From Coriobacteriia bacterium (GTDB lineage Bacteria > Actinomycetota > Coriobacteriia > Coriobacteriales > QAMH01), in NCBI GenBank assembly GCA_003149935.1, contig QAMH01000007.1, forward strand, positions 92,603 through 156,602: DNA of 64,000 bases, given 5' to 3'. The notes under the pieces were generated by a model. The model worked only from the letters and a program-made list of their open reading frames with translations, ran no database searches and had not been told where the DNA came from. Positions 9,632 to 36,893 of the stretch are shown piece by piece (within the stretch, counting starts at the first letter, position 1; the number at the start of each line of letters is the position of its first letter). The position numbers and the translations under genes were made by a program.

Positions 9632-9643
9632 GAGGTTGCGGAG

Positions 9644-10639: not shown

Positions 10640-10651
10640 GGGGAGGACGCA

Positions 10652-11431: not shown

Positions 11432-11652
11432 AAACCGCGCGCCGCTGCAATCTGGGAGAGCAGCGGCGCATCCAGCCAATCGGTGCCCTGGTCCCTCGCT
11501 CGGCCGGGGTGCCGGTCTTTCATCAATGAGACAACATCTCTGCGCAACCGCCTCATTCCAGGTGGCCAATTTCCTCGGCACTCGCGGCTCCTCGATTGCA
11601 ATCCCCTGGCGGCAAGCATTACTATTGGCCAGAGATTTCCAGAGAGGGATTC

Positions 11653-12942
11653 ATGGCAAACGATGTCGTCATTCTTGGGTTCGGCCCTGCCGCCGCCAGC
11701 GCCGTGGAGGCGTTGCGCTCGCAAGGATGCGACGCGAACGTGGACATCGTCACCGCAGGTCCCGCTTTTTGCGAAAGCCCGGTCCTGACTTCGTATAACG
11801 CAGCCGGAATCGTAGCCCGCGAGCAGGGAAGCATCTTCACTTCGGTGCTCGACGATGCCAATACGCACATCTTCCCGAACGAGGAGATCACGTCCTTAGA
11901 TACGGAAGGCCAGACCGTCAAAGCCGCAAGCGGTCGCGAGTGGCTCTATTCCGTTTGCCTGATAGCCACAGGTGCATCGCCCGTGCTTTCGGGCGAAAGC
12001 CCGCTTTTCGAATGCGATCCGCTTACGCTCAGGACCTTCGAAGACGCCGAACGCCTGAGCACGGTGCTTGCCGCACGTCCCCATGTCAGCATCCTCATCT
12101 CCGGGACCTCCATGGTCGCCCTCAAGGCGGCGGAGGCGTGCATCCGCAGGGGCGGGCAGCCGACCGTTCTGGGTCGCAGCCCTCATATCCTCAAAGGGTC
12201 GGCGCATCCCCGTGCGGCTTCCAGGATGGAGGCCCTGCTCGAAGACCAGGGAATAGAGCTCCTGCTCGGCGAGACTGCCGAAAAAGCCCACGTTCTCGAA
12301 GATGGCTCCACAAGCGTTTCCTTTTCCCACCAGGAAGAACCGAAAATTTTCGATGCGGTTCTCGTAGCCCATGGCATGAGCCCCAACATCGACTTCATCG
12401 AAAATGCCAACATACATGCCGATAGGGGAATCGTCGTCGATGCCTTCATGCGCACGAGCGTCCCTCATGTCTATGCGGCGGGAGATGTGGCAAAAGCGCC
12501 CTGCTTGTTTGGAGGAAGCAAGGTGGCCGGGCTCTGGCTCGCGGCACGTCAGCAGGGTAAGGTAGCGGGGGCGAACATGGCAAGGGAGCTTCGCGACGAG
12601 GGAAGGGCATACGCATCCGATGCCTCCGCTTTTGCCGGCAGCATGGAATATCACGGATTTCTTCCCGCGAACATCATCAAGGTCGGAGACGCGCTGTTCG
12701 CCGCTGCGGGAATGATTCCGTCGGCCGAAGATCCATTCGCGATCGAGGAGATCGAGACCGAGAACGAGTATCTGATGAAGTCCTATCTCATCCTGCAGGA
12801 CGGCCGGGCCTTGCTATGCGGTTTCAATCTCGTGGCAAAAGCCGACATGGCCGGACTCTTTGGCAAGCTGACGGATTCGATCGGGCGTATGCAGGCGGAA
12901 ATAGCCCGCAATGCGCTTCAAGGCGCATTCACCAATGTTTGA
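11653..12942 (+). CDS. FAD-dependent pyridine-nucleotide-disulfide-type oxidoreductase
   Basis: VVILGFGPAAASA FAD motif, a second dinucleotide fold (ILISGTSMVALKAAE) and AAGDVA. Start set at ATG 11653 (ORF track 11596). Confidence 0.8.
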   Translation: MANDVVILGFGPAAASAVEALRSQGCDANVDIVTAGPAFCESPVLTSYNAAGIVAREQGSIFTSVLDDANTHIFPNEEITSLDTEGQTVKAASGREWLYSVCLIATGASPVLSGESPLFECDPLTLRTFEDAERLSTVLAARPHVSILISGTSMVALKAAEACIRRGGQPTVLGRSPHILKGSAHPRAASRMEALLEDQGIELLLGETAEKAHVLEDGSTSVSFSHQEEPKIFDAVLVAHGMSPNIDFIENANIHADRGIVVDAFMRTSVPHVYAAGDVAKAPCLFGGSKVAGLWLAARQQGKVAGANMARELRDEGRAYASDASAFAGSMEYHGFLPANIIKVGDALFAAAGMIPSAEDPFAIEEIETENEYLMKSYLILQDGRALLCGFNLVAKADMAGLFGKLTDSIGRMQAEIARNALQGAFTNV

Positions 12943-12969
12943 CGGTTTCATGAGCGAGACGGAGGAGAG

Positions 12970-15135
12970 ATGAACGAGCGCGAGCTGAGGGAAAAGGGCA
13001 AGGTCCCCGGTCCGGAGACGGGCATCGAAATCAAGAAGTCCATCTGCACGATTTGCGACCCGACCACGCAATGCGGGCTTGACCTGTTCGTGAAGGATGG
13101 CAAGATCATTCGAGTCGAGGGTTCGAAGGAGGCCCCGCATTCTCACGGCAGCCTGTGCTCGAAGGGTGCGGCCACGCGGCAATATGTCTATAGTCCCGAC
13201 CGGCTGAAGACCCCGCTGCGGCGTGTGGGCGAGCGTGGCGAGGGCAAGTTCGAGCCAATCAGCTGGGATGAGGCCCTGGACGAAATCGCCAAAAACCTCA
13301 ATGCCGCAAAGGCGGAGTATGGCCCGGAATCGGTCATCTTCTTCGCGGGCTACCCCAAGCACCACAGGCCGTTCTTGCAGCGTCTTGCCATGAGCTTTGG
13401 TTCGCCGAATTACTGCACCGAATCGAGCACGTGCTCGACGGCAACCATCATGGCCCAGCAGCTCACCTATGGTGCGCCTGCAGCCCCGGACAACGGTGAG
13501 TCGGCTTGCATAATGATGTGGTCCAACAACCCGGCAGCGTCAAGGACGCTCATATGTGAAGGATTGTTCAATCGTTTGGACAAGGGGACGAAGCTGATAG
13601 TGGTCGACCCTCGCGTCACCCCTTTCGCGGCTCGTGCAGACATTCACTTGCAGCTGCGCCCCGGCACCGACGGCGCGCTGGCGCTTGCGATGGCCAATGT
13701 CATCATCGAAGAGAACCTCTACGATGCCAACTTCGTCGCCAATTGGACGGTCGGTTTCGAGGAATACGCCAAGCTTGCCGCCGAGATGACTCCGGAAAGG
13801 GCGCAGGACATCACGGGCGTTGACGCGAGCTTGATTCGCGAGGCGGCCCGGATGTACGCGACCACGAAGCCCGCGAGTATCATGACCAGCGCGGCACCTG
13901 TGGTCCATCACACGAATGGCGTGCAGAACTACCGTGCGGTGTTCTGCCTCATCGGATTGACCGGCAACTTCGACATCCATGGTGGGAACCTCATGAACAG
14001 GCCCTCGCTGGTGCACATACCGGGAGGTTTCCCCACGCGCGAGGGCGAGTTCACCTTGGCGTCCCGTCTGAAGGATTTGCCGGAAAGGATTGGCTCCCGC
14101 CGTTTCCCGGTATGGGATCGGTTGACTACGCAAGCGCAGGCGTGCGATATCCCAAGGCAGATTCTGACCGAGGATCCCTACCCGCTCAAGGCCGCGTTTT
14201 GCATGGGCTTCAACCATAGGATGTTCCCCGATTCGCAAGGCTTCATCGACGCCTTCAGCAAACTCGACTTCATAGCGGTGGCAGATCCCTTCCTGACCGA
14301 CAGCGCCAAGTATGCCGACATCGTCTTGCCGGTATGCACCTCGGTGGAGCGCAGCGAAGCGCGGTGCTGGCCCATGGGCTACGTGATGCTCTCGCAGCCC
14401 GCGATAGATCCGGTGGGGCAGTCCCGCTCCGATGTCGATATCATCGCGCAGCTGAGCCGTGAGCTGGGTCTGGGCGATGACCTGCTCGAGTCGGGATTCG
14501 ATGCGTGCCTGGATTGGATGCTCGAGCCCAGCGCCCTGTCCGTTGCAGAGCTCAAGAAGCATCCGGCCGGGATGTTCGTCCCCGATTTCAAGAAGCCCGC
14601 CGAGAGGAAGTACGTCGATCAGGGATTCAAGACCCCGTCGGGCAAGTTCGAATTTGCCTCCAGCGTGCTCTCCGAAATGGACGGCGAGGGATTCGAGGCG
14701 CTTCCCTCTTTCCGGGAGCCGGCTATAAGCCCCGTCTCGCAGCCGGAGATTGCCAAGGAGTACCCGTTCGTCCTGTCCGTCGGTGCTCGCAAGCCCATGT
14801 TCCAGCACAGTCGCACCTTCCGCATTCCCTGGATTCGCCAGTTCGCGCCAGATCCTGTCTGCGACATGAATCCGGCCGACGCCAAGCGTGTCGGCATCGC
14901 CGAGGGCGAGGAAGTCGAGCTCATGACGCCGGAGGGAAGCGTTTTTGTGAAGGCGCATCTGGACGAGATGATTCGCGAAGGTGACGTGCACCTCTATCAT
15001 GACTGGCCCGAGGCCAATGGAAACGACCTCATGTCGGGCGATTACCTCGATCCCATTTCGGGCTTCCCGGGATACAGGTCCCTGCTCTGCAAGGTGGTCC
15101 CCGCCCGCACGAGCGTCAATGCGAAGGAGGCTTAG
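12970..15135 (+). CDS. Molybdopterin (bis-MGD) oxidoreductase catalytic subunit, cytoplasmic type (721 aa)
   Basis: N-terminal 4-Cys Fe-S motif CTICDPTTQC...LCSKG followed by MopB-type and C-terminal dinucleotide-binding regions. No RRxFLK twin-arginine motif. Confidence 0.9.
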   Translation: MNERELREKGKVPGPETGIEIKKSICTICDPTTQCGLDLFVKDGKIIRVEGSKEAPHSHGSLCSKGAATRQYVYSPDRLKTPLRRVGERGEGKFEPISWDEALDEIAKNLNAAKAEYGPESVIFFAGYPKHHRPFLQRLAMSFGSPNYCTESSTCSTATIMAQQLTYGAPAAPDNGESACIMMWSNNPAASRTLICEGLFNRLDKGTKLIVVDPRVTPFAARADIHLQLRPGTDGALALAMANVIIEENLYDANFVANWTVGFEEYAKLAAEMTPERAQDITGVDASLIREAARMYATTKPASIMTSAAPVVHHTNGVQNYRAVFCLIGLTGNFDIHGGNLMNRPSLVHIPGGFPTREGEFTLASRLKDLPERIGSRRFPVWDRLTTQAQACDIPRQILTEDPYPLKAAFCMGFNHRMFPDSQGFIDAFSKLDFIAVADPFLTDSAKYADIVLPVCTSVERSEARCWPMGYVMLSQPAIDPVGQSRSDVDIIAQLSRELGLGDDLLESGFDACLDWMLEPSALSVAELKKHPAGMFVPDFKKPAERKYVDQGFKTPSGKFEFASSVLSEMDGEGFEALPSFREPAISPVSQPEIAKEYPFVLSVGARKPMFQHSRTFRIPWIRQFAPDPVCDMNPADAKRVGIAEGEEVELMTPEGSVFVKAHLDEMIREGDVHLYHDWPEANGNDLMSGDYLDPISGFPGYRSLLCKVVPARTSVNAKEA

Positions 15136-15137
15136 GC

Positions 15138-15647
15138 ATGACTTCCAAAGATACCAAGAGCATCGTCTTCAAGTCCGACCGCTGCATAGGATGCTATTCG
15201 TGCGTCGTGTCATGCATGGATCAGAACGACCTCGATGTCGCGAAGGATGGCTTGTCTTGGCGAATCGTCGAACACGTTCCCGGGAAGCTGGCGGGCAGGC
15301 AGCGTGGCAACGCCAGCGTCTCGATCGCCTGCATGCATTGCGAAGATGCGGTGTGCATAGCCGCGTGCCCTGCAGGGGCGATAACGCGAGATGCCGCAAC
15401 GGGATCCGTGCTGGTGGACGATGGCCTGTGCATCGGCTGTCATGCCTGCGCGATGGCCTGCCCGTTTGGGGCCCCTCGTTTTGGGAGTAGCGGGAAGATG
15501 CAGAAATGCGACGGGTGCTATGCCAGAACGCAGTTCGGGCTGGAACCAGCGTGCGTCAGGAACTGCCCGACCCACGCGCTCGTCTACGAACCGGTTAATG
15601 CCTCGATGGACGAGAAGGCGGCCAGCGCAGCCCGAAAGCTCGTGTAG
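15138..15647 (+). CDS. 4Fe-4S dicluster ferredoxin-type subunit (169 aa)
   Basis: CIGCYSCVVSC, CMHCEDAVCIAACP, CIGCHACAMACP and CDGC...C motifs. Starts 3 nt after the Mo subunit stop. Confidence 0.9.
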   Translation: MTSKDTKSIVFKSDRCIGCYSCVVSCMDQNDLDVAKDGLSWRIVEHVPGKLAGRQRGNASVSIACMHCEDAVCIAACPAGAITRDAATGSVLVDDGLCIGCHACAMACPFGAPRFGSSGKMQKCDGCYARTQFGLEPACVRNCPTHALVYEPVNASMDEKAASAARKLV

Positions 15648-15759
15648 TTGCGGACGCCGGAACGCCGCGTCATGTTAGGTGGAGTGAGCGACGGGGCTTT
15701 TCCGATGCAATGGAAAATGACGGGGCAAATCCTGCGGGATTTCTGCTCAGATGGAAACC

Positions 15760-16416
15760 TCATTCATTGGCGATGCCGTATTTCTCCACGGTCCGCGCGA
15801 GCTTCTTCTCGTAGCAGGAGTGTGCCGTGTACAGCACCGCGCACGGGTTGTTACCGGCGAGGAAGTCCTTCGTGGCAAAGGTCGTGACGGGTGCATCGGA
15901 GTACTTGCAGAAGAGGGCGTCGTGTCCCACGCATATGCCCATGAGGATGTTCAGGTCCGTCTTCGCTTCGTTGAGGAGAAGCGCCTGCATGATGGGATTG
16001 CAGACGACGCCTCCTTCGCCGCCCCTTGTCGGGGGCTCGAGGTCGAGGTCGGCCCTCCGGTTGCTCTCGAGCTTGCAGCCAACCGTCTCGACACAAAAGC
16101 CCGCTTGTTCAAGCAGCTTGGCCAGAATGCGCGTCTCGCGTAGCATGATGGTGCACGACGCGATGCCGATGTGGATGGCGCCGATGAGGTTCGCAAACTT
16201 GATGGTGTCCTGCACGCGTGTGGAATTCACCGTCTCCTCGCTGACCATCGCGGCGGCTTGCATGATGACGTGGTTTTCGGGAAGCGCGTATAGACGTTGC
16301 GCCTCGTCATGTAGCGCAGACGAGACCGCGCCCTGCGCGCAAAACCCCGGTCCTTCGCGATCGGTGTATTCGCATGCGGTGGTTCCGCAGCTCATGCAAT
16401 TGAGCTTTGATTCCAT
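15760..16416 (-). CDS. DUF1847-like Cys-rich putative metal-binding protein, copy 1
   Basis: MESKLNCMSCGTTACEY... N-terminal CxxC. Near-identical paralog at 23141-23806. Start set at ATG 16416 behind a GGGAGG RBS, because the ORF-track extension to 16593 runs across a tRNA gene. The DUF name is from memory. Confidence 0.75.
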   Translation of the reverse strand: MESKLNCMSCGTTACEYTDREGPGFCAQGAVSSALHDEAQRLYALPENHVIMQAAAMVSEETVNSTRVQDTIKFANLIGAIHIGIASCTIMLRETRILAKLLEQAGFCVETVGCKLESNRRADLDLEPPTRGGEGGVVCNPIMQALLLNEAKTDLNILMGICVGHDALFCKYSDAPVTTFATKDFLAGNNPCAVLYTAHSCYEKKLARTVEKYGIANE

Positions 16417-16505
16417 GGTCCCTCCCGATTGGATCTCGCGGGTCGCAGATATGACGACCAATATCATACGACCCCGCTCGAAGGAACGGGGCCGTGGGGT
16501 CATGA

Positions 16506-16580
16506 TGGAGCGGGCGACGGGACTCGAACCCGCGGATACCAGCTTGGGAAGCTGGGGCCTTACCACTTGGCGACGCCCGC
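16506..16580 (-). tRNA. tRNA-Gly(CCC), intact, CCA-encoded
   Basis: GCGGGCGTCGCCAAGTGGTAAGGCCCCAGCTTCCCAAGCTGGTATCCGCGGGTTCGAGTCCCGTCGCCCGCTCCA. It has a perfect 7-bp acceptor stem, a 5-bp anticodon stem CCAGC/GCTGG, loop TTCCCAA, T-loop TTCGAGT and U73. Confidence 0.9.
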
Positions 16581-16630
16581 ATTGAGTGAGCATTATACCG
16601 CTACCTCATCCTTTACTCTGGTCATTTTGG

Positions 16631-17326
16631 CTACTCCTCAATAATGACACCAAGGCGCCGGGCCAGCGCAGCGGCCTGATAGAGCCCGAGCTTCGCGCCG
16701 TACACCTCGTCCATGGCGTCCGATATGGCAATGCCCTCGAGCTGACATGACGTGAAATCGAGGCCGACGAGCTTCGTGCGAAAGAAACTCGTTCCAACGA
16801 AGCGGTCGTCATCGAGCGAGATGCCGCGCAGTTCCATTTCAGACATGTCCGCTGACAAGAAATCGCAGGTGCGAATATGGACAGTCTTCCAGAGGCATCG
16901 GTTGAATGCGCCGTAGGCAAATGTGCACCCGTCTGCGGCGACATGCTTCCAGAGTGCCTCGGCAAAGGACGCGCCGGCGAACTTGCTGTCGCTGAACGTG
17001 CAGCGCGTGAACGCGGCGTTGTCGAATACGCTGTTGGAGAAGTCACAACCATCGAAGGCGATATCGGTGAAAAGCGCACCGGTGAAGTCGCAATCAAGGA
17101 ACTGGCAGTTGGAGATGCGGCCACCGGAAACCTCAAGTTCGACGAATTCCGCTTCCGCAGCATGGAGCCCACGCAATTCAACGGCTTCGAGCGTTCCACG
17201 GTCGGGATCGCAAAGAACGTTCAAAGGCAGTTCGTCGAGGGAAGTGACTATGCGAGGCGCAGCCAGCTTGTAAGACGATGACGCCTTGTCGTAGGCAGCT
17301 TGTGCTGAACTAGGAAAAACGTGCAT
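16631..17326 (-). CDS. Pentapeptide-repeat protein
   Basis: Long runs of A(D/N)LxX-type pentapeptides (CDFSNSVFDNAAFTRCTFSDSKFAGASFAEALW...). Start at ATG 17326 behind an AAGGAGGGG RBS. Confidence 0.8.
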   Translation of the reverse strand: MHVFPSSAQAAYDKASSSYKLAAPRIVTSLDELPLNVLCDPDRGTLEAVELRGLHAAEAEFVELEVSGGRISNCQFLDCDFTGALFTDIAFDGCDFSNSVFDNAAFTRCTFSDSKFAGASFAEALWKHVAADGCTFAYGAFNRCLWKTVHIRTCDFLSADMSEMELRGISLDDDRFVGTSFFRTKLVGLDFTSCQLEGIAISDAMDEVYGAKLGLYQAAALARRLGVIIEE

Positions 17327-17615
17327 GCCCCTCCTTCTCTTCAGCGCCAATGCAATGTAGAGGGCGTCTTATATGTTTGCTACTATCTAGCTATGATATC
17401 GCACGCAACCTCTGCTTTCCCTTTAGCGTTCCATAGCCACGAGTTGGACGGTCAGGAAGTCATGCAACGACTCTCGTAGGACGGGATCAGATAGCCCGCC
17501 TCCTCACAGGCAGCGCTTTGGAAAGCGACGCCTCCAGGTTCCCGGCCTTCCGGCTCTGGTCAAGTTCGGAGCAAGAATAATGAGTCGTTAACGCGGCGAT
17601 TCAAGCGCGGCATAC

Positions 17616-18074
17616 TTATGCAGCGCACCCGAGCTCGCTGAGCGCCGTGAGAGTCGCATCCACGTTCTCGGCGTGCCAGTTCTTGTATCCACCGGTGTAT
17701 TGCGAGGCGTATATGCCCGAGAGTCGGACGTCGCTCAGCTCCTTCTGCTGAGTGGTGAGACGTACGCCGCCACTGTTCGTCTCAATATCGATGATCACGT
17801 TGAGCAAGTCATCGACGAGCTTCACCGATTCGATCTCCGAATAGGGGACGACGAGGGAGACGTCCCGTTCGAGAGTCGACCAACAAGGGTCGAAGGGAAG
17901 CAGGATCATCTCGTTTTCGCACATCTGGAGGACAGCGACATCGCACGCACTGAAGAATCGGACGATCTTCTCGCTCAGATCTCCCGCCGCGCCTTTGACG
18001 ATGATGCATCTACCTTCCAGAGGCGTATATCCTGCCTCGATTGCGTATTCCCATACCTTTTCCTCGCGAGCCAT
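17616..18074 (-). CDS. Hypothetical protein (152 aa)
   Basis: Clean ORF co-oriented with its neighbours. No motif recognised. Confidence 0.5.
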   Translation of the reverse strand: MAREEKVWEYAIEAGYTPLEGRCIIVKGAAGDLSEKIVRFFSACDVAVLQMCENEMILLPFDPCWSTLERDVSLVVPYSEIESVKLVDDLLNVIIDIETNSGGVRLTTQQKELSDVRLSGIYASQYTGGYKNWHAENVDATLTALSELGCAA

Positions 18075-18113
18075 GGTTATTCTGCCCCTTTCGCTATCGA
18101 TGATTTACCTGTT

Positions 18114-18317
18114 CTATTCTTCGATGGGAGTGACGATGGGCTTGCCGTCTGCACCAACAAGCGCGGTCATGCCGGTGCAGCTGACACCAGAAGATGCTAG
18201 AAAGCCTGCCAGGAGATAATTCACTCCAGTCTGGCGGTCGACGAGAACGTATGTGCGATTCGCCAGGCCATGTCGTTGCATGTATGCCTGGACGAAACGA
18301 TCGCCATTTTCTTTCAT
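18114..18317 (-). CDS. Small conserved hypothetical protein (DUF6440-like, from memory)
   Basis: ...LVDRQTGVNYLLAG...MTALVGADGKPIV pattern. Start at ATG 18317 (ORF track 18389). Confidence 0.5.
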   Translation of the reverse strand: MKENGDRFVQAYMQRHGLANRTYVLVDRQTGVNYLLAGFLASSGVSCTGMTALVGADGKPIVTPIEE

Positions 18318-18580
18318 CGGGGAATTCCTTTCGTGTGAACCCGCAGGGTGTATGTGCCGCTTGGAGTTGATGAAAAGCGGCCTTTGCAAACATCATTCTT
18401 CTCATTCGTCCCTATGCCTGCAAGCGAATAATTACCGCAAAATGCCTGTTCAGATGAGTTGTCAAAGGATTTTGACAAGAGCATTCGTGGCATCCGCATC
18501 CCTTTGTCAGGCGCGTGACCTATCATTTCGGTCTACATGGCATCGGGATACGCCGATGGGCAAGCGGAAGGAAGAGGGCA

Positions 18581-19195
18581 ATGGAACTTGCTCGGCAACT
18601 GAAAGCAAAGCGGGAGGAGCATGGCCTTTCCCAAGATGAGGTCGCGAAGGCGATATTCGTGTCGCGTCAGACCGTCTCGAACTGGGAGACCGACAAGACC
18701 TATCCGGATGTGCAGAGCCTGCTCTTGCTGAGCCAGCTGTTCGGCGTTTCCATAGACGAGCTCATCAAAGGGGATGCTGCTGCAATGCAGCAGGCCATCG
18801 AGGAGGACTCGCGCAAGATGAGGCTGCTGTCGATTGGCATGCTCGCCTTTTCGGGACTGGCCTTCCTCTTCCTCCTCGTGTTCTCGCTAGTCTGGCAAGA
18901 ACCGTCGGGCTTTGCCCGCATGAGCAAGGGCAACATCGCGGGAGCGGCCACGTTCGTCGTGCTCTATGCCATCGGATTCGGGATGGCCATCGCCATCGAT
19001 CGCTTGAAGAAGAAGCACGACATCGTTACCTACCGCGAAATTGACCGGTTCCTCAAGGGGGAGTTTGACGGCGAGCCCGACTCGCAGGGCTTCGCGCGCA
19101 GGCACCCGGCCCTCGGCGTGATGGTGAAGCTCCTCGGCGGCGCCGTTATTGGATTGATGCTAGCGGGGTTGCTCCTCGTGCTTGAGGGGTGCTAA
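18581..19195 (+). CDS. XRE-family HTH regulator with C-terminal transmembrane segments
   Basis: LSQDEVAKAIFVSRQTVSNWETDKTYPDVQSLLLLSQLFGVSIDELI, followed by hydrophobic helices. Start at ATG 18581. Confidence 0.8.
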   Translation: MELARQLKAKREEHGLSQDEVAKAIFVSRQTVSNWETDKTYPDVQSLLLLSQLFGVSIDELIKGDAAAMQQAIEEDSRKMRLLSIGMLAFSGLAFLFLLVFSLVWQEPSGFARMSKGNIAGAATFVVLYAIGFGMAIAIDRLKKKHDIVTYREIDRFLKGEFDGEPDSQGFARRHPALGVMVKLLGGAVIGLMLAGLLLVLEGC

Positions 19196-19215
19196 TCCCG
19201 CTGTCGATTTACTCC

Positions 19216-19626
19216 CTATGCCAGTTGCTCGCCGGCCGTGGGACCCGCAGCCATCTGGTACACCGCGTCCACATGGATGAAGCAGCCGCCCTTCGCCTTG
19301 ATGGGAAGCCCCATGGAGGCGAACTTGGCGTCCACCATCTCCTTCTGGACGGCGAACTCGTCACCTTCGTTGACGTAGCGTGCCGTGCCATGAATCTGAT
19401 AGGCGTCGTGTCCCGTCCAGAACGCGACGGCGACCTTCTGGTTCTCCTTCAGGTTGGCCAACGTCTTCTTGAAGAACTGGTCGGAGATGTAGACCGTTTC
19501 CTCGTCGATGACGGTCTTCATGCCGATGGCGGCTCCGTTGGGCGTCCCGTCGGCAGATGCCGTGCACAGGACCATGTTCTCGGCCGTTTCGAATAGTTCC
19601 CTCACGTCTTGGGCCATGGCTGCCAT
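19216..19626 (-). CDS. Pyridoxamine-5'-phosphate-oxidase-like FMN-binding split-barrel protein, copy 1
   Basis: Near-identical paralog at 23866-24276. Start at ATG 19626 behind an AAGGAAG RBS. Family call is by overall sequence pattern and carries medium confidence. Confidence 0.7.
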   Translation of the reverse strand: MAAMAQDVRELFETAENMVLCTASADGTPNGAAIGMKTVIDEETVYISDQFFKKTLANLKENQKVAVAFWTGHDAYQIHGTARYVNEGDEFAVQKEMVDAKFASMGLPIKAKGGCFIHVDAVYQMAAGPTAGEQLA

Positions 19627-19721
19627 GGTGGCTTCCTTTCTCGCAAGCTTTCGTTGCGAATAGTATACGCCCTCGGCTATCATGTCCCTCCTTGTTTCGT
19701 AGCGCGGCAGAGGGGATTCCC

Positions 19722-20381
19722 ATGAACGAGGAAATCGATATCGAAAGCTGGACTGATAGCCTCGTCGGCAAGGTGCTCGGCACCTTTGGTCCTCGTCTGA
19801 AGCTCGTCGGTATCCAGGGCAGCCGTGCCCGAGGCGAGGCCCGGCCTGACAGCGACATCGACGTCGTGCTGATCGTGGAGGGGTTGGATGACGATGACCT
19901 CGCGGCCTATCGCGCCTTGCTGGCTACCATGCCCCACGGCGATCTTGCCTGCGGGTTCACGGGGTCGCCGGAGCTGCTCGCCGCATGGCCGCGCCACGAC
20001 GTATTCAACTTGATCCAGGATACGCGCGTCGCGTTCGGCTCCTTCGACTTCATGGATACGGAATTCACCGCCGATGATGCGATGCTATCTGCCAAGGTAG
20101 GGGCTTCGGAAATCTACCATGCGATGAGCCATGAGCTCGTCTTCGCCGAAGGCTCGCTCGACGCCATCGTTGCCGTCTGCGTAAAATCGGCCTTCTTCGT
20201 CATGCGTGCATTGCACTATGCCAAGACCGGCGAGTATCCGCCGAGCCGCACTGCCATGAGAGAGCTCGCAACGGAGCAAGAGGCGATGTTCCTTGATGCC
20301 TACGACAACCCCGATGCCTTCGGAACCGAGGAACTTGCCCACGCGCTTCTCGCCTGGTCGAGCTCTATCGTAAGCCTATAG
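19722..20381 (+). CDS. Nucleotidyltransferase-domain protein (ANT/KNTase-like fold)
   Basis: GSRARGEARPDSDIDVVLIV (GS...SD[IV]D NTase motif) plus a helical C-terminal domain. Start at ATG 19722 (ORF track 19557). Confidence 0.7.
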   Translation: MNEEIDIESWTDSLVGKVLGTFGPRLKLVGIQGSRARGEARPDSDIDVVLIVEGLDDDDLAAYRALLATMPHGDLACGFTGSPELLAAWPRHDVFNLIQDTRVAFGSFDFMDTEFTADDAMLSAKVGASEIYHAMSHELVFAEGSLDAIVAVCVKSAFFVMRALHYAKTGEYPPSRTAMRELATEQEAMFLDAYDNPDAFGTEELAHALLAWSSSIVSL

Positions 20382-20394
20382 CGACTCTTTCCCC

Positions 20395-21057
20395 TCACGA
20401 GAGGGGGATCATGTCGAGGCGCAGGGTCTGCTCGACGACCTTCATCAGGTCATCGTCGCTGATGTCGGGCTTGACCTTCACGAGTCCCACCAGGCCAAAG
20501 ATTGCGACGCAGAACATTTCGTAGACGAGCTCGATCTCTATCTGATGGTATGCGGCGTATTCGGTGGCGATGTGATCGTAGAGAAGTTCCGCCGTTTCCC
20601 GAGTTGCCCTTACGTCAAACGCGTCACGCACGCCGAGTTCCTCGAGCACGCGAATCATCGGACGCGGGGTGCCCTCGGCATCGTAGAGCGCGTAGCGGAA
20701 GATGCGCACGCACTTCCTGAGCGAGCCCCGGGTGTCTCCGAAGACTCGCTCTTCGTTCCATGCGATGACGCTTTCCACCAGGTCCTCGACATAATCGTCG
20801 ATGACCGCCTCGATGATGCCGTTCTTGTTTCCAAAATGATAGTAGACGAGCTCGCGGGTCACGTTGGCCTCCTGCGCGATGGCCCTGACCGTGGTAGCTC
20901 GTACTCCGTCACGCTCGAAGAGCTTGCGGGCGGCCGTGGCGATGTTGCCGCGCGTTCCCGTGAGCCGGCGTGTCTCATTCAGGTCCTGTCTATGGGGGCG
21001 AACATGCGAGGCAGCTTCGCGCGGTGAGCGCTCCCCATATTCGAGGATTGTCGTCAT
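20395..21057 (-). CDS. TetR-family transcriptional regulator
   Basis: N-terminal HTH ARKLFERDGVRATTVRAIAQEANVTRELVYYHFGNK. Start at ATG 21057 (ORF track 21279). Confidence 0.85.
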   Translation of the reverse strand: MTTILEYGERSPREAASHVRPHRQDLNETRRLTGTRGNIATAARKLFERDGVRATTVRAIAQEANVTRELVYYHFGNKNGIIEAVIDDYVEDLVESVIAWNEERVFGDTRGSLRKCVRIFRYALYDAEGTPRPMIRVLEELGVRDAFDVRATRETAELLYDHIATEYAAYHQIEIELVYEMFCVAIFGLVGLVKVKPDISDDDLMKVVEQTLRLDMIPLS

Positions 21058-21095
21058 GTTCTCACCTGACCTAAGTTGGCAGACTTCGTCATGTC

Positions 21096-21122
21096 TTTCA
21101 CATATTAGGCAAATATGTGAAA
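21096..21122. promoter_or_regulatory. Candidate TetR operator
   Basis: TTTCACATAT-TAGGCAA-ATATGTGAAA, perfect 10-bp arms, in the divergent region between the TetR gene and the membrane-protein genes. Confidence 0.5.
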
Positions 21123-21202
21123 TCTTATTATACTCCGAGATGATACACTGCGGCTGGTTTCCCACATCTAGCTGGGAAAACACCGAGGTGAGGAGACACG
21201 CC

Positions 21203-22150
21203 ATGACGGTTCCTGTTTGGGTCACTCCGATTTCGATGGTGATATACACCATACTCCTGATGTTGTTCACGGAGTTCATGCGTCGTCACTACCGCACCTC
21301 CATGTGGTTCTGGGTGGTCTCTCTTGCCACTATCCCGTTCTGGATCATGAACATACCGGCCGATGACTGGTTCCGCTGGGCCAAGAACCTGTCGGTCATA
21401 CTGCCGCTCATCTATGCCGGAATCGGGCGCATCGCCGCCGTGCAGCAAAAGGACACCCCGTTTTGGCGTCTCATGCGCCAGCGCTGGGTGCGCTGGGTGC
21501 TCTACGGCATCGTGTTCTGCAACATCGCCGAGGCGACCTTGCGCGACGTCGAGATGGGTAACTACATGAACGCCCTGGCCGGATTCATCCTGTGTGTCAC
21601 GATGCCCTTCGGCGACAAGTACTGGAAGTACGACACCGCGCATTACGGCGAGATCATCGCCTACACGGTGCCCATGTGGAACTTCCTCTACACCACGTGG
21701 AACGCGTGCTTCGTCTATGCCGAGGGCCACGCGTTCTTTGCCAGCACGTGCTGCATCCTGGCGGCGGCCGAGCTCTATCCCATCATCAAGCGGCAGCCGG
21801 AGCTCTATATCACCGGCCGAATCTACACCCTGGGCATACACCTGCTGTTGCGCAGCTGTTTCCCGTTGCTGTTCCCCACCATCATGAACAGCGCGGCCTG
21901 GTTCAATCCCGACGTGATGTACTGGTGGGGCATGATCAACGGCATCATCGGCATCCCGTTCGTCTTCTGGTACTGCTACCAGCTGAGCAGCGGAAAGGCC
22001 GATGTCACCTTCCGCCGGCGCAAGGCCCGGGAGGAATACCTCATTGGCCGAGAAGAAGGCCTGATAGATGAGTACGGAGACCCGGTGAGCACCGAGGCTG
22101 CCATCGTCGTCGACGAGCAGGTGGGCGACAAGCCCGAAGTCTCCAAGTAG
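21203..22150 (+). CDS. Polytopic membrane protein of unknown function (315 aa), paralog A
   Basis: Multiple hydrophobic helices. Shares motifs NIAEAxxRD and WNFxYT with the next gene. Start at ATG 21203 behind GGTGAGGAG; the ORF-track 5' extension to 20864 is antisense to the TetR gene. Confidence 0.7.
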   Translation: MTVPVWVTPISMVIYTILLMLFTEFMRRHYRTSMWFWVVSLATIPFWIMNIPADDWFRWAKNLSVILPLIYAGIGRIAAVQQKDTPFWRLMRQRWVRWVLYGIVFCNIAEATLRDVEMGNYMNALAGFILCVTMPFGDKYWKYDTAHYGEIIAYTVPMWNFLYTTWNACFVYAEGHAFFASTCCILAAAELYPIIKRQPELYITGRIYTLGIHLLLRSCFPLLFPTIMNSAAWFNPDVMYWWGMINGIIGIPFVFWYCYQLSSGKADVTFRRRKAREEYLIGREEGLIDEYGDPVSTEAAIVVDEQVGDKPEVSK

Positions 22151-22173
22151 GCATCGAGGGAAGGGGAACCACC

Positions 22174-23136
22174 ATGGGGATTCTGTATCAAGCCGCCGAT
22201 CCCATCTACTGGGCCATCTGGCTGTTCGTCCTGTTCGCGCTCATGGCTTTCAACGAACTGGGACGCGTGAAGCTGTGGGCCGGCCTGGCGCTTTTCGCCA
22301 TCGTTCCCATCGCGCTGACCATCTTCGTCTGGCCCGAGACCGCAGCGCCCGGTAACGAGTACGGAACCGGCACCTGGTTCAATTGGGTGAAGACCTATTC
22401 GGCACTTGCGGGCTGCCTTGGCTTCATCGCCTTGCGCTTCGTCAAGTGGAACGGCAAGGACGGCAAGGTCCACTATCTCTACGAGAAGAAGTGGGCGCTG
22501 TGCTTCCCGCCGCTCATCCTCGCCATCAACATCGCCGAGGCCGTCATTCGCGACTTCCAGGTGTTTGGCTTTGCCCTGTGGAGCGGCGGCGTCGTGGAGA
22601 ACCTCTGGACCATATCCGGCCCGTGGAACATCATGAACGGCATTGCGGGCATCTTGAACATCGTCACGATTTGCGGCTGGTTCGGAATCTTCATCTCGAA
22701 GGATTCCTCCAAGGACATGATCTGGCCCGATATGATCTGGCCCTGGATCATCGCGTATGACCTGTGGAACTTCGCCTACACCTACAACTGCATCTCGGAT
22801 CACTCGGCTTACTGCGGCCTGGCCCTCCTGCTCGCATGCACCATTCCCACCTTCTTCATCAAGCGGGGCGCGTGGTTGCAGCACCGGGCCCAGACGCTTG
22901 CGCTGTGGATCATGTTCGTCATGACGGTCCCGCAGTTTGCCGATGTGCTGGCACCCATTCCCACCACGCACAATCCCACCGCGTTCTTCGTGGTGAGCCT
23001 CATCGCGCTGGCGGCAAACGTCGCCGTGGCCGTCTACCAGCTCTATCGCATCCGCAAGTTCAAGCTCAATCCGCTCAAGGACGAGATCTACAAGGGCACC
23101 AAGCCCTACGAGCGCGTGGTCGAGGAGAATCGCTAA
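22174..23136 (+). CDS. Polytopic membrane protein of unknown function (320 aa), paralog B
   Basis: Distant paralog of 21203-22150 (NIAEAVIRD, LWNFAYTY). Confidence 0.7.
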   Translation: MGILYQAADPIYWAIWLFVLFALMAFNELGRVKLWAGLALFAIVPIALTIFVWPETAAPGNEYGTGTWFNWVKTYSALAGCLGFIALRFVKWNGKDGKVHYLYEKKWALCFPPLILAINIAEAVIRDFQVFGFALWSGGVVENLWTISGPWNIMNGIAGILNIVTICGWFGIFISKDSSKDMIWPDMIWPWIIAYDLWNFAYTYNCISDHSAYCGLALLLACTIPTFFIKRGAWLQHRAQTLALWIMFVMTVPQFADVLAPIPTTHNPTAFFVVSLIALAANVAVAVYQLYRIRKFKLNPLKDEIYKGTKPYERVVEENR

Positions 23137-23140
23137 TGAT

Positions 23141-23806
23141 CTAGCCCGTGGCGGGGTTGTCGATGCGCCACTCCTCCACGGTCTTCTGCAGCTTCTTGCG
23201 ATAGCAGGACTGCGCCGTGTACAGCACCGCGCACGGGTTGTTGCCGGCGAGGAAGTCCTTTGTCGCGAAGGTGGTGACGGGCGCGTCGGAGTACTTGCAG
23301 AAGAGGGCGTCGTGACCCACGCATATGCCCATGAGGATGTTCAGATCCGTCTTGGCTTCGTTGAGCAGGAGCGCCTGCATGATGGGATTGCAAACGACGC
23401 CACCTTCGCCGCCCTTGGCAGGCGGCTCGAGATCCAGGTCCGCGCGCCGATTGCTCTCGAGCTTGCAGCCGACCGTCTCGACACGGAACCCCGCCTGCTC
23501 AAGCAGCTTGGCCAGCGTGCGCGTCTCGCGCAGCATGATGGTGCATGAGGCTATGCCGATGTGCCGTGCTCCGATGAGGTTCGCGAACTTGATGGTGTCT
23601 TGCACGCGTGTCGAGTTCGCGGTGTCCTCGCTGACCTTTGCGGCAGCTTCCATGATCGCATGGTTCTCGGGCAGGGCATACAGGCGGTGCGCTTCGTCAT
23701 GCAACTCGGGCGAGACCGCGGCCTGCGCGCAAAAGCTCGGCTCCTCGCGCTCGGTATATTCGCATGCGGTGGTTCCGCAGCTCATGCATGTGAGCTTCGA
23801 TTCCAT
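23141..23806 (-). CDS. DUF1847-like Cys-rich putative metal-binding protein, copy 2
   Basis: MESKLTCMSCGTTACEY.... Near-identical to 15760-16416 at both the protein and nucleotide level by eye. Confidence 0.75.
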   Translation of the reverse strand: MESKLTCMSCGTTACEYTEREEPSFCAQAAVSPELHDEAHRLYALPENHAIMEAAAKVSEDTANSTRVQDTIKFANLIGARHIGIASCTIMLRETRTLAKLLEQAGFRVETVGCKLESNRRADLDLEPPAKGGEGGVVCNPIMQALLLNEAKTDLNILMGICVGHDALFCKYSDAPVTTFATKDFLAGNNPCAVLYTAQSCYRKKLQKTVEEWRIDNPATG

Positions 23807-23865
23807 GGTGTCTCCTATGTGGTTTGACAGGCGCTTATGAACGCATATGCATATGTTGCGAGGCT

Positions 23866-24276
23866 CTATGCGAGCTGGCTTCCCGCCTCGGGGCCAGCTG
23901 CCATCTGGTACACCGCGTCCACGTGGATGAAACAGCCGCCCTTGGCCTTGATGGGCAGGCCCATGGACGCGAACTTCGCGTCCACCATCTCCTTTTGCAC
24001 GGCAAAATCATCGCCGTCGTTGACGTAGCGCGCCGTGCCGTGAATCTGGAAGGCGTCGTGGCCGGTCCAGAACGCGACGGCGACCTTCTGGTTTTCCTGC
24101 AGGTTGGCGAGCGTCTTCTTGAAGAACTGGTCCGAGATGTACACGGTCTCGTCGTCGATGACGGTCTTCATGCCGATGGCGGCGCCGTTAGGTGCTCCGT
24201 CGGCGGATGCGGTGCACAGCACCATGTTCTCGGCGGTCTCGAACAGCTCGCGTGCGTTTTGGGGAAGCTTTGCCAT
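23866..24276 (-). CDS. Pyridoxamine-5'-phosphate-oxidase-like FMN-binding protein, copy 2
   Basis: Near-identical to 19216-19626. Lies 59 bp upstream of DUF1847-like copy 2 on the same strand. Start at ATG 24276. Confidence 0.7.
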   Translation of the reverse strand: MAKLPQNARELFETAENMVLCTASADGAPNGAAIGMKTVIDDETVYISDQFFKKTLANLQENQKVAVAFWTGHDAFQIHGTARYVNDGDDFAVQKEMVDAKFASMGLPIKAKGGCFIHVDAVYQMAAGPEAGSQLA

Positions 24277-24314
24277 GGTCGGTCCCTTCTCGCGATGTGC
24301 GTTGTGGATAGTAT

Positions 24315-24345
24315 ACGCCTCGGGAAGAAGGGGCCTTACCACTTG
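24315..24345 (-). other. tRNA-Gly-derived fragment (D-arm to anticodon-loop region)
   Basis: Positions 24330-24345 (GGGGCCTTACCACTTG) match the tRNA-Gly at 16506-16580 exactly over 16 nt. The adjacent 15 nt match 10/15, including CTTCCC. Confidence 0.5.
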
Positions 24346-24356
24346 TTATTTCATTA

Positions 24357-24417
24357 TTTTCATGTACATGCTGTACACGAAATTATAAATTTTCATGTAC
24401 AATATGTACACGAAATT
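24357..24417. repeat. Two 28-bp direct repeats in an AT-rich promoter region
   Basis: TTTTCATGTACATGCTGTACACGAAATT (24357-24384) and TTTTCATGTACAATATGTACACGAAATT (24390-24417), with a 33-bp period. Each contains a TGTACA-N-TGTACA dyad. Confidence 0.6.
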
Positions 24418-24463
24418 GAGAATTGGAGCAAACTCGAGCAGACGTGATTCAGGGGCTGATTTT

Positions 24464-25935: not shown

Positions 25936-26010
25936 TGGAGCAGGCGACGGGGTTCGAACCCGCGAATACTGGCTTGGGAAGCTCCTGTTCTACCATTGAA
26001 CTACGCCCGC
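25936..26010 (-). tRNA. Hybrid tRNA-Gly(CCC)-like sequence with a disrupted anticodon stem (probable junction product, possibly non-functional)
   Basis: GCGGGCGTAGTTCAATGGTAGAACAGGAGCTTCCCAAGCCAGTATTCGCGGGTTCGAACCCCGTCGCCTGCTCCA. Acceptor, D and T arms fold normally, but the anticodon stem strands GGAGC/GCCAG pair at only 2 of 5 positions. Confidence 0.6.
25972..25982. repeat. 11-nt core shared by both junctions (att-core candidate, left copy)
   Basis: GCTTGGGAAGC on the plus strand (the anticodon loop plus 2 nt on each side). Identical copy at 40945-40955. Confidence 0.65.
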
Positions 26011-26082
26011 AGTGCCGGCCTATTATACTCTTCCCTATCCGCATCGCCACGGGCATTTCAGCAAATCCCCATGGGTCGCACC

Positions 26083-26565
26083 CTAAGCGGCCTCCCTCAG
26101 GAAGTTCATGTAGCGCGCGCCGATGCCTATTCCGGTATTCGGCACGTACCCGGCGTAGAGGTCAAGCGTGTAGGCGGAGCTGGCGTGCCCCATGAACACC
26201 GACACCGTCTTGATGTTCTCGCCGTTGGCGAGGTTCAACGTCGCGAAGGTGTGTCGGAGGGCGTAGGGGCGTACTCCCTCGAACCCGGCGTCGGCCGCGA
26301 ACCTCAGCCAGTCGCGGTGTCACGATTGGTAGGTTTGGGGGATCATCTCGGGGCCACATACCAGCATGCTCATGGACGGCTTGAAACCGAGTTCCTTCAT
26401 CAGGTTCGACTTGAGCTCTATCCATTGCCTCAGAACCTCTGCCGTGTACTCATCGACGGGAACGCTGCGCTTCGACGCGTCGGATTTGGGGTACTCCCTT
26501 ATCTCCTTGCCGTCGCAGTCTCGCGCCTGGCGCCCCGAGACGCCCCTATCCAAGGAAGTCTGCAT
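26083..26565 (-). pseudogene. Tyrosine recombinase/integrase remnant (C-terminal catalytic half only, with an in-frame TGA)
   Basis: ALRHTFAT... and [17 protein letters not shown] (catalytic Tyr region). In-frame TGA at 26320-26322 (...QTYQS*HRDWLRF...). The frame closes at 26575-26577 and the Crp/Fnr gene end overlaps it, so the N-terminal half is missing. Confidence 0.8.
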
Positions 26566-27322
26566 CGTGGTGACCTAACAACTCCGACATGGTGCTCAGC
26601 TGCCGTTTGAAGCGCGGGGATCGCCTCCACTTCTCAGTCCAGATGAGAATGGAATTGGGTCGTAGTGTTACCATCCCGTCGGCCTCCATCTTCTTGAGCG
26701 CTCGCGACACGTTGGCACGCTCCGCGTGAATGATGGTGCCTACTGTCTCATGGGTCATGGCAAGCTCCAGCGCGCCTTCCTGGTCTCCGTGCATGCGCCA
26801 AAGGCACATGGCGAACAGTCGCTCGATGCGATTGGCGATGCGCGTTCCCTGCAAGATCCACGATTGGCGCACGTAATTGGTGGTGTTGTTGGAAGTTCCC
26901 GCCAACACATCGACAAGCAGCCTTGCATCATGTCTGATGACATCCATATAGGCACGCTCGGGAATGACGCAGACCTCCAGGTCCGTAGCCGCAAAGATGT
27001 AGTCGCCAGCATCGGCGCCAAGGTAGGCCCCGGTTTCACCAATGGTGTCTCCAACCCCCAGCACGCAGCTCACAAGCTTGTCGCCATTTTCCTGGAGAAG
27101 ATACGAAATCGCCAGCCCTCGCATGATGACCATCACGTAATTCGTTACCCCACGCTCGATGATCTGCCCTCGCAAATAGTTCTTTGTGAGCACACCCGTA
27201 ATTACGGGGCCCTCATGCAGTCTGCTGCATATATGCCGGAAATGGCACTTTCTCTGGAGCTTGCAATACGCTGGCTTGCCGCCTGCAGCGCCGTTGTCCC
27301 CCGAATCGCCCTTCGTACCCAT
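26546..27322 (-). CDS. Crp/Fnr-family transcriptional regulator with N-terminal Cys cluster
   Basis: Effector-domain pattern plus C-terminal HTH ([29 protein letters not shown]). N-terminal [13 protein letters not shown]. Divergent from the Mo-enzyme operon. Confidence 0.8.
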
Positions 27323-27403
27323 AGCCCCTCCATCTATTTATGAGCTGCGAAACATTATAATCTCCTGCACTTACTCCAACGCCTGCCAGCCAGCTCAAGC
27401 GAG

Positions 27404-27419
27404 TGTGTTAGGTAACACA
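27404..27419. promoter_or_regulatory. Candidate Crp/Fnr-family operator
   Basis: TGTGTTA-GG-TAACACA is a perfect palindrome (TGTGT-N6-ACACA, CRP-like) in the divergent region 27323-27624. The adjacent ACGTGTCT motif is repeated at 27423 and 27443. Confidence 0.5.
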
Positions 27420-27624
27420 TTCACGTGTCTTTTACCATGTGAACGTGTCTCTAATCACTGAAAAAGTCCCCCGAACCCACTAATCTGGCAGCCATGATCG
27501 ATCATGAAGGTACCACTATCGTGGCTTAGGTTCGCGCGCTTCCTCATGGGTTTCCAGACACCCCATGTCCCTTGCGCGTGTGCAACCCCAAGCCACTTCT
27601 CCAAAGAAGATAGGGGGATTCTAA

Positions 27625-30171: not shown

Positions 30172-30173
30172 CC

Positions 30174-30932: not shown

Positions 30933-31080
30933 TACCCCTTTTCCGTGGATGGGCCGGCCTCTAGCAGCCCCCGCTGTCGGCCCATTCGCTTCTCTCATGC
31001 TACCAAGGGCGTGGCGTGCATCACGCGAAGCGTGACACCAAGATGCGTCCTTGACCCCCAACTCCAAGGAGGGAATCATT

Positions 31081-31527: not shown

Positions 31528-31616
31528 GCCCGCTTCGGGCGAACATCGTCTCCTGACATCGCTCGTGTTTGTACAGGCCGAGCTTTGCTCGGCTCGCCTT
31601 CAGAAAGGATACAGCA

Positions 31617-36864: not shown

Positions 36865-36893
36865 AGTGACCAAACAGTCAGCGCAACCTCGAC

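Follow-up and report, generated by a model that had tools for sequence, protein, structure and literature searches.

Duplicated PNPOx-like and DUF1847 genes, compact in one copy and lying on either side of a tRNA-Gly(CCC) recombination hotspot in the other, in an uncultured gut Coriobacteriia bacterium

The closest described systems to the locus considered here are the islands targeted to transfer RNA (tRNA) genes of the Islander collection (PMC4383910), the small split-barrel protein HupZ of Streptococcus pyogenes, whose haem chemistry is disputed because the His tag has been implicated in haem coordination (PMC7865249, PMC9237417), and the family PF08901 (DUF1847), which carries the Joint Genome Institute (JGI) annotation 'uncharacterized metal-binding protein'. 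The locus lies in a 64,000-nucleotide (nt) stretch of contig QAMH01000007.1 (hereafter the window) from an uncultured gut Coriobacteriia bacterium, the nearest named relatives of which are Eggerthellaceae. It contains two genes for a PNPOx-like split-barrel protein and two for a DUF1847 protein; one of each forms a compact pair (copy 2: PNPOx-2 and DUF1847-2), and the others (copy 1: PNPOx-1 and DUF1847-1) stand on opposite sides of a tRNA-Gly(CCC) gene. An original prediction, made from the sequence alone, had seen here a two-component redox module kept in two copies, one of which had been split by the insertion of a tRNA-containing block into an ancestral operon. Our comparison with related sequences, mostly metagenome contigs and designated by L numbers, indicates that the locus is a case of ordinary genome mosaicism at a tRNA hotspot and that there is no conserved two-protein system. 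The reading that we favour, and regard as probable, is that both genes underwent an old paralogous duplication within one genus-level group, copy 2 being compact and the copy-1 genes flanking a reshaped tRNA-Gly(CCC) hotspot.

That the gene pair is duplicated was confirmed by self-BLAST. The DUF1847 copies (15767-16425 against 23157-23815) align over 659 nt at 85.0% DNA identity with 0 gaps and 99 differences, and the PNPOx copies (19216-19676 against 23866-24323) over 461 nt at 83.5%; the BLASTN E values of the duplicated segments (0 and 1e-137) are far beyond chance, and the pairwise alignment puts the boundaries at the gene edges. Four minus-strand open reading frames (ORFs) were found where they had been predicted (Table 1), with Pfam support for PF08901 twice and PF01243 twice, and the 59-nt gap within the copy-2 pair was confirmed by reading the sequence. 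The copies are not, as had been claimed, near-identical: in addition to the DNA values above, protein identity is 86% for DUF1847 and 90% for the PNPOx-like protein. Third codon positions hold 69/97 and 49/64 of the differences between the copies, the synonymous divergence (dS) is about 0.6-0.8 and the ratio of non-synonymous to synonymous divergence (dN/dS) is 0.08-0.15 for both genes. The duplication is therefore an old one, and purifying selection acts on each of the four genes.

Upstream of DUF1847 the homology between the copies extends for 9 nt, which takes in the ribosome-binding site, and then stops; beyond that site no homology to copy 1 was detected in the 59-nt spacer. Upstream of PNPOx it extends for approximately 50 nt and then stops. 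A promoter region shared by the two PNPOx genes had been predicted and is really present, but it does not serve as a mark of the duplication, because the same leader, with its GTATACT -10 box, is kept ahead of stand-alone relatives in unrelated contexts (L091, L093, L094 and L096), and so is a trait of the gene family.

Neighbour-joining trees based on codon alignments gave a copy-1 clade and a copy-2 clade, each with 100% bootstrap, in both families. In the PNPOx tree the two clades were placed together with 96/100 bootstrap, and in the DUF1847 tree the sister relation of the copies, weighed against a placement involving the stand-alone gene of L087, obtained 47 against 53 of 100. The paired clades and the PNPOx grouping are what would be expected if a contiguous operon had been duplicated and one copy then split; the DUF1847 result counts against this, and is more easily accommodated if the copy-1 genes had separate origins. 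The PNPOx trees also bear signs of exchange between paralogues. In a protein neighbour-joining tree the L091 PNPOx (P0126) falls in the copy-1 clade, and in the nucleotide tree it groups with L086 (98/100). L091 (6008-6470) and L086 (9476-9938) have in common a 463-nt unit that begins at -53, ends with the stop codon and is 95.5% identical, and the flanks are unrelated; in L091 the unit, the start codon of which is AAG, sits between a nucleotidyltransferase fragment and an AAA_14 gene, without an adjoining DUF1847 gene. Such a unit in unrelated flanks points to recombination or gene conversion, and PNPOx paralogues thus appear to swap sequence, behaving like a cassette of promoter plus gene. 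As recombination of this kind would account for the conflicting placements of L091, dating of the PNPOx duplication by divergence is unreliable.

The arrangement of copy 1 was assessed at 19 tRNA junctions: those of 17 metagenome contigs (L098-L114), retrieved because they match the tRNA's 3' half exactly, together with L005 (Coriobacteriia metagenome-assembled genome (MAG) HGM04055) and the window. L005 matches the window at 94.4% DNA identity from 16553 downward only, the break falling in the anticodon loop, and its matched stretch runs through the tRNA 3' half, DUF1847-1, Fer4 and molybdenum (Mo)-oxidoreductase genes and onward. A copy-1-type DUF1847 gene (95-97% protein identity) also follows the tRNA 3' half in L100, L102, L107, L108, L109, L111, L112 and L113. 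When flanks were typed as upstream (U) or downstream (D) of the tRNA, the combinations were U1-D1 (six, including the window), U1-D2 (two) and U1-D3, U1-D4, U2-D1, U2-D3 and U3-D1, and in four further cases (L005, L109, L111 and L113) D1 followed a tRNA whose 5' half was truncated or replaced. D1, the flank that leads into the copy-1-type DUF1847 gene, is therefore found not only with the pentapeptide-type U1 but also with the promoter flanks U2 (L102) and U3 (L104), and U1, which has PNPOx-1 further upstream, is also joined to three other downstream flanks. PNPOx-1 is linked to nucleotidyltransferase and TetR genes in L096, L097, L104, L105 and L110; L105 has this module and the tRNA with no DUF1847 gene in the 5.2 kb downstream, and L102, L111 and L113 have DUF1847-1 without the module. 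The tRNA and DUF1847-1 are thus a constant unit, the 5' side of the tRNA is variable, and what stands on one side is independent of what stands on the other. Rather than an operon, copy 1 consists of a TetR/nucleotidyltransferase/PNPOx-1 module on the 5' side of the tRNA and DUF1847-1 on the other.

The original prediction had correctly listed what lies between the copy-1 genes of the window (the XRE gene with transmembrane segments, the DUF6440 gene, the 152-amino-acid (aa) hypothetical gene, the pentapeptide-repeat gene and the tRNA), and its explanation, that a contiguous operon was duplicated and that one copy was split by a single 2.8-kb insertion carrying the tRNA-Gly, pentapeptide-repeat, two small and XRE genes, has several points in its favour beyond the trees. 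The copy-1 genes lie in the same order and on the same strand as their counterparts in copy 2, dS is similar for both genes, and the homology upstream of DUF1847-1 includes the ribosome-binding site. However, independent assortment around a conserved tRNA 3' half and DUF1847-1, with a variable 5' side, is unlike what a single insertion predicts. The distance from PNPOx-1 to the tRNA ranges from 0 (L109) through 2.6 kb (window), 4.4 kb (L104) and 5.6 kb (L105) to 11.5 kb (L110), and the interval has several breakpoints, one of them exactly at the PNPOx-1 stop codon, where the homology of L096 and L110 to the window ends. No contiguous copy-1-type pair was found; the nearest to it was in L109, a single 1.6-kb contig, where PNPOx-1 is cut at codon ~119 and fused (at ~1330-1345) through a 4-nt GTGG microhomology to the D-loop of the tRNA-Gly, with DUF1847-1 following, a deletion that has truncated both PNPOx-1 and the tRNA. 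The edges of the interval contained no remnants of the copy-2 spacer other than the similarity at the ribosome-binding site, a comparison that has no power at this divergence. We therefore consider a single insertion into a copy-1 operon to be improbable.

In L096, in which the XRE gene is replaced, the sequence directly downstream of PNPOx-1 (1850-2200) is a GC-rich, structured-looking stretch; Rfam gave nothing at the gathering threshold in L005, L085, L086 or L096, this stretch included.

Copy 2 gave a different picture. L085 and L086 each have a single pair, which corresponds to copy 2: it is in the same position and has 89.6-91.4% DNA identity, matching the divergence of the shared backbone. 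Two stretches of L086 align with the window, 9477-10692 with 24329-23115 (89.6%) and 10727-16845 with 11488-5371 (89.9%). In L085 and L086 alike, the sequence of window 11488 and below follows immediately on the pair, and 11489-23114 is missing. The missing block contains both copy-1 genes, the tRNA, two DUF5692 genes, the TetR and nucleotidyltransferase genes and the Fer4, Mo-oxidoreductase and Pyr_redox genes. The junction in L085 and L086 retains the last seven codons (VVEENR*) of a DUF5692 gene, a remnant that points to deletion of the copy-1 block in the L085/L086 lineage and to a two-copy layout older than that split. The DUF5692 genes themselves encode membrane proteins and are in tandem on the plus strand (21203-22150 and 22174-23136); they have in common a 37-nt stretch that is 78% identical, and it is the end of the second that is left in L085 and L086 as a relic. 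From 24329 down, L002 has 96% identity to the window; upstream of PNPOx-2 it has an L086-type flank instead of the tRNA fragment (site d, below) present in the window, which makes the left junction of the window a recent rearrangement. The possibility that window 16554-40942 was a single 24-kb island was dropped, since L085, L086 and L002 put the copy-2 pair in the shared backbone.

An alternative to a joint duplication is that of separate origins: PNPOx-1 and DUF1847-1 would be paralogues that arose independently, or would have come from a related lineage, and would be 2.8 kb apart only because both lie near the tRNA hotspot. Genes of this PNPOx subfamily commonly stand alone with their own promoter in many contexts and exchange sequence between contexts, the two sides of the tRNA assort independently, and the placement of L087 in the DUF1847 tree is equivocal. 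Nevertheless, the two families have the same two-clade structure and similar divergence, the order and strand of the copy-1 genes match those of copy 2, and the overlaps of L002, L104, L108 and L112 fit one long shared ancestral layout containing both copies, so that separate origins also seem rather unlikely. The converse possibility, that the separated layout of copy 1 came first and that a deletion joined the genes to form copy 2, can draw on L109, which shows that deletions joining PNPOx-1 to the tRNA/DUF1847-1 side occur, and on the large deletions common at the locus, but is very doubtful given that the copy-2 PNPOx gene is intact, that its 59-nt spacer has no tRNA remnant and that the compact pair is kept at ~90% identity in L085 and L086.

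Several points weigh against the old joint duplication that we favour. The comparison contigs are mostly short metagenome fragments from different samples, so that linkage is seen over a few kb and in no closed genome; the tRNA-anchored set, having been chosen by exact match to the 3' half, is biased towards this allele; and the direction of the events (insertion or deletion) rests on small remnants, namely the seven DUF5692 codons and a 29-nt repeat described below. The order, orientation and similar dS of the copy-1 genes are also the expected relics of a pair that was once contiguous, and a split in deep time is compatible with them. Finally, scans for promoters and terminators returned counts no better than those from shuffled sequence.

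With these reservations, the history under an old duplication might run as follows. Both genes would have been duplicated long ago within the group, and the two-copy layout would have been in place before the L085/L086 split, the copy-1 block then being deleted in that lineage. With the copy-1 genes on opposite sides of the tRNA-Gly(CCC), islands, deletions and flank exchanges may have reshaped the interval repeatedly, and PNPOx paralogues may have exchanged sequence by gene conversion. Copy 2 is predicted to be co-transcribed, probably from the PNPOx -10 box, with DUF1847-2 translated from its own putative ribosome-binding site 59 nt downstream.

The hotspot itself could be followed through tRNA-derived sequences at four sites (a-d, Table 1), which share an orientation. 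There are three occurrences of the anticodon-loop core GCTTGGGAAGC in the window, likewise in a single orientation, against an expectation of 0.05. Site a is the intact gene. Site b has an Rfam score of 49.4 bits and yet ARAGORN did not call it. Three of its arms (acceptor, D and T) fold, whereas the two strands of the anticodon stem, GGAGC and GCCAG, cannot pair. The tRNA is probably dead, although some pipelines are likely to annotate the sequence as a tRNA; the miscalling of tRNA fragments as genes is discussed in PMC9897764. At the homologous position L110 has an intact tRNA. Adjoining site b is an integrase pseudogene, frameshifted and N-terminally truncated, with 73-88% protein identity to the C-terminal part of a 519-aa integrase-like ORF in L114, which lies beside an excisionase-like ORF and a tRNA core plus 3' half; the short fragments gave no match in Pfam and were identified through this full-length homologue. 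At site c the stem strand reads CTGGC and is exactly complementary to the GCCAG of site b, with two compensatory changes relative to site a. Sites c and b would accordingly each be half of a single former tRNA gene, broken up by the intervening ~15 kb (26011-40942), which carries a Nuo51-like/2Fe-2S pair, a dimethyl sulphoxide (DMSO)-reductase-type Mo-oxidoreductase and metabolic cargo, as well as the mobile-element genes ParB_N, HTH_36 and AbiEi_4 at 36-40 kb, and looks like a decayed integrative element.

Site d adjoins the PNPOx-2 promoter on its upstream side. The flank carrying the AAA_14 gene and the putative operator (below) runs instead, in L111 and L113, into a 5'-truncated tRNA followed by DUF1847-1: L111 1-1542 corresponds to window 25851-24319 and 1514-2076 to 16571-16008, with a 29-nt overlap, and L113 has the same join. 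These are two independent assemblies that lack 16572-24318 and are joined inside the 29-nt repeat. The absent 7.7-kb segment contains the copy-2 pair and PNPOx-1, and its end supplies the promoter and 5' half that complete site a; no integrase or other recombinase was found between 16572 and 24318 among the ORFs, Pfam matches or gene calls. It is possible, although we put this forward only tentatively, that the sole working tRNA-Gly(CCC) of the locus has been rebuilt, the ~15-kb island having split the original gene and the 7.7-kb segment having restored a truncated copy by providing a promoter and 5' half, which would be the reverse of the usual restoration of a 3' half. Between the divergent AAA_14/DUF4143 gene and PNPOx-2, at 24356-24421, there are two tandem 33-nt units with the palindrome TTTCGTGTACA...TGTACATGAAA; they are kept in L111 and L113 and look like a putative operator.

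Table 1. Features of the duplicated genes and the tRNA-Gly(CCC) locus, with their positions in the window.
Feature	Position	Strand	Basis
11.6-kb block missing from L085 and L086	11489-23114		Contig alignment
DUF1847 copy 1, 218 aa	15760-16416	-	PF08901 E 1.4e-44; 85.0% DNA identity to copy 2
Spacer of 89 nt separating DUF1847-1 from tRNA-Gly (flank type D1)	16417-16505	-	Start TCATG(A/G)CCCC in 13/19 junctions
Site a, intact tRNA-Gly(CCC)	16506-16580	-	ARAGORN; Rfam 62.8 bits; cloverleaf fold
7.7-kb segment missing from L111 and L113	16572-24318		Ends are the tRNA-derived direct repeats d and a
Variable interval, PNPOx-1 to tRNA	16581-19215	mixed	Gene calls and Pfam
Pentapeptide-repeat gene in the interval	16631-17326	-	Pfam
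Hypothetical gene, 152 aa, in the interval	17616-18074	-	
DUF6440 gene in the interval	18114-18389	-	Pfam
XRE-HTH (helix-turn-helix) gene with transmembrane segments (XRE-TM)	18581-19195	+	Pfam
PNPOx-like copy 1, 136 aa	19216-19626	-	PF01243 61.8 bits
Leader and -10 box of PNPOx copy 1	19627-19676	-	Alignment to copy 2
DUF1847 copy 2, 221 aa	23141-23806	-	PF08901 E 1.5e-46
59-nt copy-2 spacer with AGGAGA ribosome-binding site before DUF1847-2	23807-23865	-	Direct reading
PNPOx-like (HupZ-like split-barrel) copy 2, 136 aa	23866-24276	-	ORF; PF01243 61.7 bits
Leader and -10 box GTATACT of PNPOx copy 2	24277-24329	-	Copy-1 homology ends at 24323; L002/L086 homology ends at 24329
Site d, tRNA-Gly fragment (D-loop to anticodon loop)	24319-24345	-	24/27 nt match to tRNA
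Site b, chimeric tRNA-Gly-like sequence, broken anticodon stem	25939-26010	-	Rfam 49.4 bits
Tyrosine-integrase pseudogene, C-terminal fragments in two frames	26083-26565	-	ORFs; L114 homologue
Site c, tRNA-Gly(CCC) 5' half and TATAAT promoter flank	40943-41002	-	92% identical to 16540-16600

Whether the two proteins form a module was addressed by a synteny survey of the best 80 of 589 confirmed DUF1847 loci in species-representative genomes, in which 10 kb on either side was searched for the close PNPOx subfamily. This subfamily was found at 0/80 loci. As the hidden Markov model used for PNPOx, built from five near-identical sequences, was too specific alone, it was backed by a Pfam scan of neighbours and by clustering of ORFs. 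Among 127 immediate neighbours, from 65 loci with an automatically picked DUF1847 ORF, PNPOx_N was not one of the 25 most frequent of 219 Pfam families, the commonest being DUF3810 (7/127) and topoisomerase (5), and clustering of 460 neighbour ORFs gave no shared partner in more than nine loci. The DUF1847 genes of other Eggerthellaceae adjoin ABC-F, GroEL, DUF554 or ArsP_2 genes, and L087 has a stand-alone DUF1847 gene (86% protein identity) beside an ABC transporter; likewise, the PNPOx relatives in L091, L093 and L094 (79-86% protein identity) stand alone in three contexts. Following DUF1847 in L008 (an Ellagibacter MAG; 10654-12477) are a same-strand 129-aa ORF without a Pfam match and then an ArsP_2-type permease; the same 129-aa ORF comes after DUF1847 in L007 (10648-11034), and these two are the only other hint of a local DUF1847 operon.

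The compact pair was seen in four sequences only, namely the window, L002 (96% DNA identity), L085 and L086 (both ~90%), with a spacer of 59-61 nt in each. No terminator-like site was listed in the copy-2 spacer by a scan whose counts were no better than those from shuffled sequence. Co-occurrence of the families in other genomes, on which the proposal of a module had been made to depend, thus fails outside one narrow group: the adjacency of PNPOx and DUF1847 is a lineage-specific arrangement and is no evidence for an obligate two-protein system. What can be kept of the two-component redox module is confined to the clade, where the 59-61-nt spacer and a dN/dS of ~0.1 are in its favour; as a conserved module it does not stand, given the result at the 80 species loci. 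Within this group a HupZ-like protein and a Cys-rich DUF1847 protein may constitute a lineage-specific pair for electron transfer or cofactor handling, which would explain the operon-like arrangement with its fixed spacer. Functional coupling of the two proteins is nevertheless rather doubtful, finding no support in the comparative context. More generally, at a recombination hotspot the side-by-side position of two uncharacterised families in one genome is a poor guide to a functional module, and duplication of the two does not change this.

Both DUF1847 copies are full-length members of PF08901, matching profile positions 7-157 of 157 with 151.9 and 158.3 bits against a cut-off of 25, and both have the family's features: an N-terminal CxxCx4C motif, further cysteines and a GHD motif. 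The original description of an N-terminal CxxC, Cys-rich protein was therefore accurate, there being eight conserved Cys, those beyond the motif following successive beta-strands. In an alignment of 17 sequences down to 41% identity, C7, C10, C15, C88, C114, C139, C162, H165 and D166 were invariant and C26 nearly so. The AlphaFold2 (AF2) model of copy 2 has a Rossmann-like alpha/beta fold with a disordered Cys-rich N-terminus (predicted local distance difference test (pLDDT) score 82). Because of the cysteine pattern, the conserved Cys would be expected to bind an iron-sulphur (Fe-S) cluster or Zn. No relative in the PDB was found by sequence, or by fold at E < 1e-3, no NCBIfam model matched and no mention was found in the literature searched. 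The protein is widespread in gut anaerobes (589/600 pattern matches in species-representative genomes encode a relative) and, with no solved relative, no literature found in the search and no conserved gene partner, DUF1847 is a genuine unknown.

The FMN-type (flavin mononucleotide) split-barrel assignment of the other protein was upheld. Both copies match PF01243 (PNPOx_N; 61.8 and 61.7 bits against a cut-off of 28.1), and AF2 (pLDDT 93.6) predicts a split beta-barrel of one domain, for which the best structural matches are HupZ and FMN-binding proteins. Foldseek returned 118 PDB matches at E <= 1e-3, with split-barrel proteins throughout the top matches listed; the top five were all HupZ (template-modelling (TM) score 0.75-0.87, best E 1.5e-9), followed by small FMN- or F420-binding PNPOx-like proteins. 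HupZ was also the nearest solved relative by sequence, aligned end to end (phmmer E 6.8e-6, residues 9-135). S. pyogenes HupZ (PDB 5ESC, 7KPZ; TM 0.78-0.87) resembles the window protein in being a single-domain split beta-barrel of ~130 aa, although sequence identity is only ~20%, and the window, in its annotated parts, showed no haem-uptake genes. The FMN-binding protein of Desulfovibrio vulgaris Miyazaki F (PDB 1AXJ, 1WLK and others) has the same minimal split-barrel (TM 0.68-0.77), and it and other small PNPOx-like FMN/F420 proteins have PF01243 in common with the window protein; the likeness to the FMN and F420 PPOX subfamilies is at the level of fold and Pfam, since the NCBIfam scores are far under the cut-offs (FMN PPOX 30.7 against 79 bits, F420 PPOX 25.9 against 170 bits). 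A PdxH-type pyridoxamine 5'-phosphate oxidase was excluded by length (136 aa against ~200+ aa), and no PdxH model of NCBIfam matched. As the activity of HupZ is disputed, the ligand could be flavin or haem, and the protein is best regarded as a putative small flavin- or haem-binding protein.

The window also contains an FMN riboswitch (RF00050, 100.5 bits; 58329-58470, plus strand), far from the PNPOx-like genes and with no link seen to them. Interspersed repeats of ~30 nt (CGCTCCCACTGTCATTTCGAGCGGAGCG) with hairpin-forming ends, resembling repetitive extragenic palindromic (REP) elements, occur at 47201-47293, 48555-48631 and 56774-56856, the first two between long ORFs, and a 60-nt tandem repeat (3.3 copies, 73% match) at 46042-46239 lies within a 429-aa minus-strand ORF (45754-47043).

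The locus is a well-resolved case of serial rearrangement at a tRNA gene and bears on both tRNA annotation and island mapping. In common with the tRNA-targeted islands of Islander, it has a tyrosine-integrase remnant at a tRNA-derived junction, an intact tRNA with displaced fragments as direct repeats, several elements in series at one tRNA, and presence or absence that varies among related contigs (L111 and L113 being without 16572-24318, and L110 being intact at site b). It is unlike them in its displaced fragments, which are not all of the usual 3' kind (site c is a 5' half that has kept a promoter, and site d is internal to the tRNA), in the chimeric tRNA at site b that is unable to form an anticodon stem, and in the 7.7-kb segment carrying the pair, which has no integrase of its own and so does not qualify as self-mobile. 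The two proteins are ordinary members of PF01243 and PF08901 and the locus fits the known pattern of tRNA-targeted islands, with displaced 5' fragments and a chimeric tRNA as its unusual features.

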